DNA of 64,000 nucleotides. It comes from a bacterium (GTDB lineage Bacteria; Margulisbacteria; Marinamargulisbacteria; SXXA01; JAHFDB01). The notes under the pieces were generated by a model, which ran no database searches, was not told the origin of the DNA, and saw nothing but the letters and a program-made list of their open reading frames with translations. The position numbers and the translations under genes were made by a program. The DNA lies in NCBI GenBank assembly GCA_023249195.1, contig JAHFDB010000003.1, positions 7,561 through 71,560 on the forward strand. Direction: 5' to 3'. Shown piece after piece: positions 13,297-15,366 of the stretch (positions are counted from its first letter, which is position 1; each line of letters begins with the position of its first letter).

Positions 13297-15366
13297 ATGA
13301 TAGATACACGTATGAAAACAAAACTCACGACTATTTTAAATAGTTATTCAGATATCTTTTTTATTCGAGGGGTTTATCCGGGCCTCATTTTATTGTTACT
13401 GAGCTTTTTCAACCCCTATTGTGCCATTGGGGGGCTTTTGGCTGTTTTGTCGGCCTATTATTTTGCGACTTTTATTGGCTATAGCGCCACCTTTTTGAGC
13501 TCGGGATTTTATACCTACAATGCCCTTCTTGTTGGCTTTTCCATTGGGGTCACTTTTAAGCTCACTGCCTTAACCTTGATGCTCATTTTTTCTGCAGGAA
13601 TTTTGACCTTTGTGTTTACCATTGTTTTTTCTCATCTGTTTTCACAGTATTTAAAATTGCAGATTTTAAGTCTCCCTTTTGTGGCAGTCAGTTCTTTGGT
13701 CTACTTGGCCTTGGGCCGCTATAGCCATTTATATATCGAAGGGCTTTATCAAAAAACGTTTTCCTACGATTGGAGTTATTTTTACCCTTGCGTTAACGCT
13801 TTTTTTAAATCTATGGGCAACATTATTTTCATGCCCAATGTGATCATTGGAATATTCATTTCACTGTTAATTTTATACGCCTCTCGCATTTTATTTTCCT
13901 TGGCTGTTTTAGGTTTTACACTCGGCAGTGTGGTTCAGGGACTGTACGTAGGCTCAATGACCCTAGGATTTACGCAGCCCTATAATTTTAACTTTATTTT
14001 GATTGCCATGGCCATCGGAGGTATTTATCTTATCCCCTCGATTCAAAGTTATATCGTGGCCATGATTGGGGTTGTTGTTTCCACTGTATTAATCAGTGGG
14101 CTAGATGTCTTCTGGGCCCATTTTTCCCTGCCTATTTTTACACTCCCTTTTATTATTGTCACACTTTCTTTTGTCTATGTATTGGGCTTGATTAATTATC
14201 GGCTTAGACCTACCGTTCATAAGGCAACCCCCGAGGAAACTCTGGATTATTTCTTGACCACTCAGGCACGATTTCCGCAAGATTTAACCATAAGACTGCC
14301 CTTTTATGAAAGGTGGACAGTGTGGCAAGAATTTAACGGACAATGGACCCACCAAGGCCTGTGGCGCTATGCCTATGACTTTGTTCAAACCGATTCCGAG
14401 CATAAAACATACACCCACAAAGGTGCTCGATTGGACGATTATTATTGCTTTAAAAAACCGGTTTTATCTCCACTTTATGGCCAAGTCACGAAGGTTGTTG
14501 CGCATGTTCCAGACAACCCTGTCGGAAGTGTCGACATGACCCAAAATTGGGGAAACCATGTCTTGATTCGACATGCGAATGGGCATGTGGTCGAACTTTC
14601 CCATTTTTTCCAACACTCTATTGTTGTCAAAGAAGGCGACTGGGTAAGCCAGGGGTCTCTCATTGGCCTGTGCGGAAATTCAGGTTATTCGGCCCAACCT
14701 CACTTGCATATTCAGGTCCAGTGGTCGGCCGAGCAGGTGTCTCCGCCCATCCCCTTTGCCTTTGGGAGTTATATCCAAAAAGGCCATTATCAAGATTCTG
14801 GACTTCCTAAAGTGTCTGATTGTGTTTATGGCATGCCTGCCATGCCTTTTTATGATCAGCTTACCCATTTTATTCTTGGCCACTCTGCCGACTACTCTGT
14901 CTATAAAAGAGGCAAAAAAATTCAGGATGTGACCCTCACCATCGGCATGGCTGATGACGGTACGTTTTATTTTTCAACTCCACGTGCAAAGCTTTATTTC
15001 GGAAAACGGGACGGTCTTTTTATGATGTACCATATGGAGAACTATGATCCGTTTTTAAAAATACTCTATCTGGCCTTACCCAAAATGCCCCTCTATTACG
15101 AACCCGGATTAACCTGGACAGACATTCTTCCCAGCACCGTTTATTTGAGACACTATAAAAAATGGTTATCCAGTTGGCTGACGGCCCTATTCCCCTCAAA
15201 ACTCACTACGGTTGGAACCTATACCTTTCAGTCTGAAACCGAAATTACTGGAAAAATTCGGCACCGTTTTTTCAAACGCTCACACACAACCTCTGTGGTA
15301 CTAGATCCCCACATTCAATTCAAACATATTCGATATAAACATTTTGAAATAAAAAAAACACCTTAA
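13297..15366 (+). CDS. Fusion protein: urea-transporter-like polytopic membrane domain joined to an M23 (LytM) metallopeptidase domain
   Basis: The N-terminal roughly 300 aa has multiple TM segments with UT-family-like motifs (SGFYTYNALLVGFS, LPIFTLPFIIV). The C-terminal part has the M23 signature GNSGYSAQPHLHIQV with upstream His/Asp motifs. Total length is 689 aa. Confidence 0.5.
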   Translation: MIDTRMKTKLTTILNSYSDIFFIRGVYPGLILLLLSFFNPYCAIGGLLAVLSAYYFATFIGYSATFLSSGFYTYNALLVGFSIGVTFKLTALTLMLIFSAGILTFVFTIVFSHLFSQYLKLQILSLPFVAVSSLVYLALGRYSHLYIEGLYQKTFSYDWSYFYPCVNAFFKSMGNIIFMPNVIIGIFISLLILYASRILFSLAVLGFTLGSVVQGLYVGSMTLGFTQPYNFNFILIAMAIGGIYLIPSIQSYIVAMIGVVVSTVLISGLDVFWAHFSLPIFTLPFIIVTLSFVYVLGLINYRLRPTVHKATPEETLDYFLTTQARFPQDLTIRLPFYERWTVWQEFNGQWTHQGLWRYAYDFVQTDSEHKTYTHKGARLDDYYCFKKPVLSPLYGQVTKVVAHVPDNPVGSVDMTQNWGNHVLIRHANGHVVELSHFFQHSIVVKEGDWVSQGSLIGLCGNSGYSAQPHLHIQVQWSAEQVSPPIPFAFGSYIQKGHYQDSGLPKVSDCVYGMPAMPFYDQLTHFILGHSADYSVYKRGKKIQDVTLTIGMADDGTFYFSTPRAKLYFGKRDGLFMMYHMENYDPFLKILYLALPKMPLYYEPGLTWTDILPSTVYLRHYKKWLSSWLTALFPSKLTTVGTYTFQSETEITGKIRHRFFKRSHTTSVVLDPHIQFKHIRYKHFEIKKTP

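Follow-up and report, generated by a model that had tools for sequence, protein, structure and literature searches.

The gene analysed here lies at positions 13297-15366 (+) of the window, by which we mean the whole 64,000-nucleotide stretch of contig JAHFDB010000003.1 (assembly GCA_023249195.1). It encodes a protein of 689 residues in which a channel domain of the urea-transporter (UT) type is followed by an M23 zinc-peptidase domain and by a family-specific C-terminal domain (CTD), and we refer to it as UT-M23-CTD. The protein is a further member of a widespread, catalogued and experimentally uncharacterised family of ~690-residue inner-membrane proteins, not a new fusion, and it is the hub of a conserved gene cassette. 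The cassette has five parts and was found in at least a dozen phyla; its carriers include Aquificota, Calditrichota, Gemmatimonadota, Planctomycetota, Verrucomicrobiota, Chlamydiales, Gammaproteobacteria and the Margulisiibacteriota-like genome of the window. The peptidase domain is predicted to face the cytoplasm, and the window protein is probably neither a physiological urea transporter nor a cell-wall hydrolase.

The gene is one ATG-started open reading frame (ORF) without interruption. Its motif strings GFYTYNALLVG and FTLPF occupy residues 70-80 and 281-285, and GNSGYSAQPHLHIQV occupies residues 460-474. AlphaFold2 (AF2), run with a 96-sequence alignment, gave one confident single-chain model of the protein (pLDDT 92, pTM 0.86), and an independent metagenome contig in ENA carries the identical protein as well. 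A search of a protein collection clustered at 90% identity returned 1,159 relatives. The best 120 of these 1,159 are all collinear with the window protein, are ~690 residues long, contain both Pfam domains and align at 43-52% identity over 97-100% of the query, so that even the closest UT-M23 relatives in this collection reach 52% identity at most. The relatives come from Shewanella, Persephonella, Hydrogenothermus, Calditrichia, SAR324, Planctomycetota, Verrucomicrobiota, Melioribacteraceae, Methylococcales and others, and a scan of one genome per species gave 202 UT-M23 loci. The window protein was missing from the results of the homologue search (best match 52%), although an identical ENA sequence exists; its absence probably stems from the index rather than from biology. 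The leucyl-tRNA synthetase (LeuRS) of the window, by contrast, matched itself at 100%, and its closest named relatives, at 63-66% identity, belong to Candidatus Margulisiibacteriota.

The fusion proposed in the first-pass annotation is therefore genuine, as shown by the single ORF, the collinear relatives and the independent contig. An artefact in which a frameshift or misassembly joins two genes is ruled out by hundreds of collinear homologues across phyla, by the independent contig and by the confident single-chain model; nothing was found in its favour, and its probability is next to nil. With the soluble half (residues 300-689) as the query, 544 clusters at the 50% identity level were recovered at E≤1e-30, and in nearly all of the 150 best-scoring of these 544 representatives the soluble half sits at positions ~300-690 of ~690-residue proteins. 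The UT, M23 and CTD parts therefore form an obligate unit. A full-length UT-M23-CTD homologue was not found in a plasmid collection.

The same annotation had taken the fusion to be undescribed, which does not hold. More than 1,100 relatives exist, and their source annotations already read 'urea transporter' or 'urea transporter/murein DD-endopeptidase MepM'. In addition, Cagliani et al. 2026 (Biol Direct 21:32; PMC12998343) list M23 among the commonest partners of bacterial UT domains and give UniProt A0A399T3G1, with M23 C-terminal to UT, as an example of the architecture. The passages of that paper on UT+M23 catalogue the architecture only and contain no topology, operon context or functional analysis. 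A literature search on the fusion, the operon and the carrier organisms gave nothing beyond this catalogue.

The UT-type channel domain covers residues 11-295 (13327-14181, +), with helices between residues 2 and 298. Pfam PF03253 matches at E 1.5e-55 (188.9 bits; cutoff 25) over profile positions 2-290 of 292. In Foldseek comparisons, the N-terminal half of the AF2 model aligned with target-relative TM-scores of 0.80-0.84 to the Desulfovibrio vulgaris transporter dvUT (3ME1/3K3F) and of 0.73-0.82 to human UT-A/UT-B, and superposition revealed the inverted-repeat UT fold, with two five-helix halves and re-entrant half helices. The urea-transporter-like domain claimed earlier was thus recovered over its full length and with its own fold, and it is no generic membrane anchor. 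Among the 96 aligned family sequences, the pore-motif residues S125, P127, F128 and P284 are invariant and T282 and F285 are conserved in at least 90%; Y74/N75 and F231/N232 are invariant, and F22 and F178 are invariant or nearly so. This conservation of the paired pore motifs argues for a working pore and not a mere anchor. The urea-transporter equivalog TIGR03441 (Yut) scores 104.7 bits against a cutoff of 274.6, and the window protein is therefore no orthologue of the characterised bacterial urea transporters. Urease is never found beside UT-M23 in the window or in 80 related loci. By sequence comparison, the protein belongs to the UT and M23 superfamilies but is the orthologue of no characterised member.

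The M23 zinc-peptidase domain, predicted to be cytoplasmic, extends over residues ~330-490 (14284-14766, +). Pfam PF01551 matches residues 387-483 at E 5.4e-14 (52.6 bits, cutoff 28.7), and Foldseek aligned the middle part of the model with DipM, lysostaphin, ShyA, LasA and LytM, with E down to 5e-7. The Pfam matches of both domains are far too strong to be due to chance. The zinc ligands and catalytic histidines are all present in the window protein; in all of the 96 sequences H352, D361, H469 and H471 occur unchanged, and at least 90% keep H436. With the fold and a complete catalytic set in place, the M23 assignment made from the letters alone was correct. The first motif reads H-x8-D (WTHxGxWRYAYDF) instead of HxxxD, which is why the Pfam alignment begins only at profile position 14. 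This spacing is intermediate: M23B enzymes have HxxxD, and LasA (M23A) has a wider one. The C-terminal domain that follows (residues 491-689; 14767-15363, +) consists mostly of beta strands and is modelled confidently (pLDDT 94). It has no family match, not even at E≤10 in Pfam, and the top 50 PDB matches found by Foldseek contain nothing except M23. The domain almost always occurs along with the M23 and UT parts.

The side of the membrane on which the peptidase lies decides what it can reach. The first-pass annotation had read the protein as a small-amide or urea channel joined to a cell-wall hydrolase; in its full form, this reading makes UT-M23 a periplasm-facing peptidoglycan endopeptidase that is anchored in the membrane by a urea/amide channel and couples wall remodelling to urea transport. 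The M23 fold with its full catalytic set agrees with it, as do the best NCBIfam matches, which are weak and fall on murein endopeptidases, and the operon partners, a TPR protein and an outer-membrane barrel, which are envelope proteins. Several lines of evidence place the domain on the other side. First, no hydrophobic segment follows residue 310 and no 19-residue window there exceeds a hydropathy of 0.7; the M23 domain is preceded by no signal sequence, and no transmembrane segment separates it from the UT domain. The M23 domain and the CTD therefore share a side of the membrane with the UT C-terminus, and in solved UTs of bacteria and mammals both termini are cytoplasmic (N-in/C-in). The charge distribution of the 96 sequences fits this orientation: the N-terminal tail holds 2.4 Lys+Arg on average, and the central loop has a net negative charge (0.69 Lys+Arg against 1.45 Asp+Glu).

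Second, rare variants of the family (P0129 and P0131; 1,078-1,085 residues) continue after the CTD with an Arg-rich stretch (RGPRR), one hydrophobic helix and two copies of the TPR module. The TPR copies of P0131 are 36% identical to the separate TPR protein of the window (E 2e-29 and 2e-24), and P0131 (L081:5867-9124) lies in an otherwise normal operon of the UT-M23 family, where the next gene encodes an AMP-binding enzyme. With one transmembrane helix between the modules and the free TPR protein secreted, M23 and TPR are set on opposite sides of the membrane, and the M23 module would therefore be cytoplasmic. These fusions also argue for physical cooperation of UT-M23 and the TPR protein. 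Another long variant, P0133 (1,029 residues), has a second polytopic membrane region and TPR-like repeats instead, and could represent either another kind of fusion or an error of gene calling.

Third, one relative of 413 residues, P0215, consists of M23 and CTD alone and lacks a signal peptide. Beyond the family, the closest M23 relatives (36-40% identity) are ~310-residue proteins of haloarchaea (Haladaptatus, Haloferax, Halorientalis, Halocatena) and of Thermus, which share the RYAYDFVITDE motif and begin with two or three transmembrane helices, after which comes a linker rich in Arg and Lys. Haloarchaea have no murein, and the M23 clade is therefore not tied to peptidoglycan. The murein-endopeptidase equivalogs score far below their cutoffs (MepM 34 against 341, ShyA 26 against 700, DipM 26 against 740). 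Two plasmid genes, L083:5701-6627 from Haladaptatus and L084:5779-6738 from Thermus thermophilus, encode standalone membrane-anchored M23 proteins of the same subclade (38-40% identity), and their neighbours are not conserved. The absent transmembrane segment, the charge bias and the TPR fusions thus go against the earlier claim of a channel joined to a cell-wall hydrolase. Very probably the M23 domain faces the cytoplasm and would have no access to the sacculus, and the periplasmic endopeptidase is a very improbable reading.

The UT-M23-CTD gene opens the cassette. It is followed by a candidate outer-membrane beta-barrel of 292 residues (15457-16335, +), with a signal peptide and the C-terminal end ...VSAHF but without a Pfam or NCBIfam family match. 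Divergent barrel relatives directly follow UT-M23 in most loci and likewise have signal peptides and aromatic C-termini (...GYTF, ...GVNF). Both features are hallmarks of outer-membrane beta-barrels, and from them we infer a location in the envelope. The next gene encodes a secreted TPR protein of 220 residues (16385-17047, +) with the signal peptide ...APAIA|A and TPR Pfam matches; its counterpart was found beside UT-M23 in 65 of the 80 related loci by tblastn, and the protein is presumably located in the periplasmic part of the envelope. Three enzyme genes complete the cassette. The first is a long-form fold-I pyridoxal-phosphate (PLP) decarboxylase of 890 residues and of the type of Mycobacterium tuberculosis Rv2531c (17037-19709, +; PF01276). 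The second is a divergent ATP-grasp ligase of 492 residues (19703-21181, +) that matches NCBIfam PRK06524 at E 2e-154, below the cutoff of that model. The third is an N-terminal nucleophile (Ntn) acyltransferase or hydrolase of the C45/AAT family with 325 residues (21183-22160, +; PF03417 E 4.6e-36; NF040521 162 bits, cutoff 85). A gene for a sugar aminotransferase of the DegT/DnrJ/EryC1 type (22197-23324, +) begins 36 nucleotides past the C45 gene, and no counterpart of it was found in any of the 80 related loci. The earlier statement that UT-M23 opens a co-directional 10-kb cluster consequently stands for the opening gene and for the conserved succession of UT-M23, barrel, TPR protein, decarboxylase, ATP-grasp ligase and C45 enzyme, and fails for the DegT gene. 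What is conserved is a cassette of ~9 kb (13297-22160) with one local addition.

To place the window operon among its relatives, ORFs were called and clustered in the 80 related loci plus the window (81 in total). A barrel gene, a TPR gene or both lie on the same strand as UT-M23 in 70 of the 81 loci, usually directly downstream, and encode in this shared core a barrel of ~290 residues with a signal peptide and a secreted TPR protein of ~210 residues. The enzymes around the core come in two sets. In type I, represented by ~48-50 loci, a 78-residue PqqD-like protein, a 346-residue ATP-grasp ligase and a 450-residue fold-III PLP decarboxylase are encoded ahead of UT-M23 by genes that abut or overlap. 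The PqqD-like protein matches PF05402 at E 5e-17 and passes the cutoff of TIGR04353. The hosts of type I are Aquificota, Calditrichota, Ignavibacteria, Gemmatimonadota, Planctomycetota, Verrucomicrobiota, Lentisphaerae, a metagenome-assembled genome of Chlamydiales, Thiomargarita and others. Even between groups as far apart as Aquificota, Verrucomicrobiota and Chlamydiales, the ATP-grasp ligases of type I share 61-88% identity (L009:2839-3879 and 14 other loci; alignment A6) and are much better conserved than UT-M23 (~45-52%), which reflects either a very strong constraint or recent horizontal transfer.

In type II, which comprises 18 loci including the window, a fold-I decarboxylase of ~890 residues, an ATP-grasp ligase of ~495 residues and a 325-residue C45 Ntn enzyme follow the TPR gene. 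The hosts are the window genome, that of locus L001, Shewanella, Psychromonas, Moraxellaceae, Methylococcales and bacteriovoracs, and the gene order of the window is that of L001 and related loci. The decarboxylase is kept in 16-18 type II loci and the ligase in 13-14, the family profile of the latter giving weak ATP-grasp and biotin-carboxylase matches; the C45 enzyme, 60-68% identical in 11-12 loci, is the best-conserved type II gene. No solved homologues of the type II ligase or of the C45 enzyme were found by sequence. The order is changed in L002-L006 (Shewanella), L019, L041 and L064, where the TPR gene comes directly after UT-M23 and the barrel and a second TPR gene lie after C45 or upstream; the cassette is thus rearranged but complete.

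None of the 81 loci combines partners of both types, and the genes that flank the cassettes are otherwise unrelated. The nearest neighbour of a UT-M23 protein always belongs to its own operon type (40 of 40 and 17 of 17), with 51-52% identity within a type and 44% between types. The decarboxylases of the two types have unrelated folds, and their ATP-grasp ligases show only distant homology (hhalign E 3e-5). Decarboxylase and ATP-grasp ligase were thus recruited twice as a pair, and we regard this double recruitment as strong evidence for a functional link of decarboxylation and ATP-dependent ligation to UT-M23, the barrel and the TPR protein.

The enzymes give hints on the chemistry. The window decarboxylase aligns with Rv2531c (PDB 9N0O) at E 1e-181 over 855 residues (27-881), a stretch that takes in the additional N-terminal domain. 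According to a 2026 study (PMC13506015), Rv2531c decarboxylates L-glutamate and is inactive on Lys, Orn and Arg, and its R576 was proposed to bind the side-chain carboxylate. The residues H405/K406, K570, R576, T606, R718 and N731 of Rv2531c, among them those named in that study for glutamate recognition, are all kept in the alignment of the window enzyme, whose annotation as an 'Orn/Lys/Arg decarboxylase' is therefore probably wrong; the label is probably wrong across the whole Rv2531c-type subfamily. The substrate of the window decarboxylase likely has a glutamate-like acidic or acyl side chain, in keeping with a glutamate-type specificity. No relevant operon or neighbourhood information was found in the PMC13506015 study. 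The type I decarboxylase, in turn, aligns best with the N-citrylornithine decarboxylase FslC (193 bits), followed by the solved diaminopimelate (DAP) decarboxylases (LysA, 150 bits) and BtrK (83 bits), and scores 229 bits on the LysA model, below the cutoff. BtrK acts in butirosin formation, where it decarboxylates a gamma-glutamyl carrier-protein adduct; in that pathway a dedicated hydrolase later takes off the glutamyl group, which serves as protection. Both decarboxylase versions thus resemble, in their sequences, enzymes for amino acids whose side chain either terminates in a carboxyl group or is joined to a partner through one, and a carboxyl-linked side-chain adduct is the kind of product that an ATP-grasp ligase makes. 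A 2-pyrrolidone-like lactam, oligomers of gamma-aminobutyrate (GABA) and gamma-glutamyl amides were considered as products; the results do not separate them and we assert none.

The kinship with LysA also raises the idea that the M23 domain cleaves recycled or precursor peptidoglycan stem peptides in the cytoplasm, while the LysA-like decarboxylase and a Ddl-like ligase rework the DAP and D-Ala fragments. Stem-peptide bonds are the usual substrates of M23 enzymes, and the type I ligase has weak Ddl and pseudomurein-ligase matches that agree with such a role, as do the LysA-like scores of the type I decarboxylase. However, FslC scores higher and the cutoff of the LysA model is not reached, and the type II decarboxylase, which has the same operon role, is of the Rv2531c glutamate type with R576 and no DAP enzyme. 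Moreover, the archaeal M23 relatives live without murein, the UT pore cannot admit peptides, and ampG, ampD, mpl and ldcA are not among the conserved neighbours. Stem-peptide processing is for these reasons quite unlikely.

The PqqD-like protein that opens the type I operon is of the PqqD/RRE type and points towards ribosomally synthesised and post-translationally modified peptides (RiPPs). A RiPP system would have this protein present a precursor to the ATP-grasp ligase and would use M23 as a leader peptidase coupled to export; a peptidase fused to a membrane conduit suits this scheme, and ATP-grasp enzymes modify peptides in several RiPP classes. Against it, no conserved small ORF was found upstream of the PqqD gene in 23 loci, and within the operon the genes abut or overlap, while type II operons, that of the window included, have no PqqD protein, nor is a PqqD domain hidden in their longer ATP-grasp ligase. 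PLP decarboxylases also need a free alpha-amino acid group, and a peptide would not fit through the narrow UT pore. We consider the RiPP reading improbable.

The account of the cassette that we put forward tentatively, as possible but short of probable, is the synthesis of an amide in the cytoplasm, its trimming by M23 at the mouth of the UT pore and its exit by way of that pore. Starting from a glutamate-type precursor, the decarboxylase and the ATP-grasp ligase would form a small compound with an amide link in the cytoplasm. M23, positioned where the channel opens to the cytoplasm, would then cleave one amide or peptide bond of this compound, and the UT pore would let the small neutral amide product out. 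Its onward passage over the periplasm and the outer membrane would fall to the TPR protein and the barrel. The logic may be likened to that of peptidase-containing exporters, with a passive channel in place of the pump. Several points weigh against this account. The UT pore is very narrow, as the dvUT and UT-B structures illustrate, and admits only molecules of the size of urea or acetamide. To our knowledge, M23 enzymes are solely peptidases of the Gly-Gly or D-Ala-meso-DAP type, and we know of no small-molecule amidase activity among them. The PqqD-like protein of type I hints at a peptide substrate, which a small-molecule model leaves unexplained. Finally, five loci with full flanks (L007, L018, L030, L031 and L047) lack both enzyme sets.

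The transport could also run inward. Urea or a small amide would then be taken up or sensed through the barrel, the TPR protein and the UT pore, with M23-CTD serving as a cap, a scaffold or a hydrolase and the enzymes assimilating the product. UT channels are bidirectional and the pore motifs are conserved, and an outer-membrane channel paired with an inner-membrane one is the usual arrangement for uptake. The pairing of a decarboxylase with an ATP-grasp ligase, on the other hand, is biosynthetic and not catabolic; urease, amidase and allophanate hydrolase are not conserved nearby, and neither is a riboswitch or a regulator. The invariant catalytic residues also argue against a purely regulatory M23 domain, and uptake or sensing has a low probability. 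In its wider form, the outward reading describes an unrecognised envelope-spanning export route, in which a masked amide derived from glutamate or GABA would be unmasked by the zinc peptidase and leave through the channel, the TPR adaptor and the barrel. We hold this to be conceivable though unlikely. If true, it would be the first non-urea physiological role of a UT-family channel and the first cytoplasmic small-molecule role of an M23 enzyme, and it would imply a new and widespread bacterial metabolite.

The surroundings of the cassette add few clues. A search for riboswitches and RNA leaders in the window and ten loci found only tRNAs, and a scan for promoters and terminators gave no usable operon boundaries. 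An anti-phage defence system was considered and rejected, the PADLOC defence models having no match among the nine cassette proteins. Upstream of UT-M23 lie two large divergent genes (9157-11988, -, and 12001-13185, -) with a counterpart in none of the related loci. The former encodes a 943-residue protein with only a weak match to a DXD glycosyltransferase region; the latter encodes a 394-residue protein with an ankyrin-repeat match and a repetitive N-terminal part rich in Pro, Thr and Lys (PETPKTPKTPS...PQTPQTPETPRT). Both look eukaryote-type or effector-like, which is unusual in a free-living bacterium. Just past the cassette, a tRNA-Met gene (24444-24518, +) is immediately followed by a gene for a PD-(D/E)XK_2 'transposase-like' nuclease of the Rpn/YhgA-like kind (24677-25597, +), and this pair could mark a mobile-element or integration hotspot. 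The window itself is chromosomal and carries sucCD, leuS, relA/spoT, recJ and lepB.

The labels 'urea transporter' and 'peptidoglycan DD-metalloendopeptidase', which stand on hundreds of genomes, fit these proteins poorly, given a peptidase predicted to face inward and an operon without urease. The fusion itself, common and already listed, is no discovery. The cassette behind it is a well-defined, widespread and testable system of uncharacterised role. The replacement of two of its enzymes by counterparts, a decarboxylase of unrelated fold and a distant ligase, is a strong sign of a conserved and uncharacterised pathway, and the match of the type II decarboxylase to Rv2531c offers a concrete starting point for its chemistry.

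Comparison with known systems sets out what the cassette shares with each and where it departs. The UT domain has the same fold as the solved transporters dvUT and UT-A/UT-B and the same paired x-LPF and YN/FN motifs, yet it is only ~21% identical to them, and one 'ladder' residue in the second half, an acidic or amide position (E187 in dvUT), is not kept in the family, where our reading of the alignment gives A, N or S at position 175. In contrast to dvUT, Yersinia Yut and the mammalian UTs, UT-M23 adds a 390-residue enzyme module that is predicted to be cytoplasmic. With LytM, lysostaphin, MepM, ShyA, DipM and LasA it has the fold, the zinc ligands and the catalytic histidines in common, whereas the H-x8-D spacing differs; unlike the M23/LytM murein enzymes, it is predicted to be cytoplasmic and membrane-attached, and it has no cell-wall-binding domain. 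Rv2531c, the 'KOR' long-form decarboxylase, works in the GABA shunt (PMC13506015), while the window enzyme sits in the UT-M23 cassette. The type I trio has the order of BtrI/BtrJ/BtrK: first a small protein, then an ATP-grasp ligase, and last a fold-III decarboxylase. However, BtrI is the acyl carrier protein of butirosin formation and the type I small protein is PqqD-like, the remaining butirosin pathway is absent, and FslC and LysA are closer than BtrK to the type I decarboxylase. The peptidase-containing exporters known as PCATs, in which a C39 peptidase is fused to an ABC exporter, likewise have a cytoplasmic peptidase on a membrane conduit, an arrangement that could couple cutting to transport; this is an analogy only and involves no homology. 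A PCAT joins an ATPase exporter to a cysteine protease, whereas UT-M23, beside which no precursor peptide gene was found, joins a passive, narrow channel without an ATPase to a zinc enzyme.

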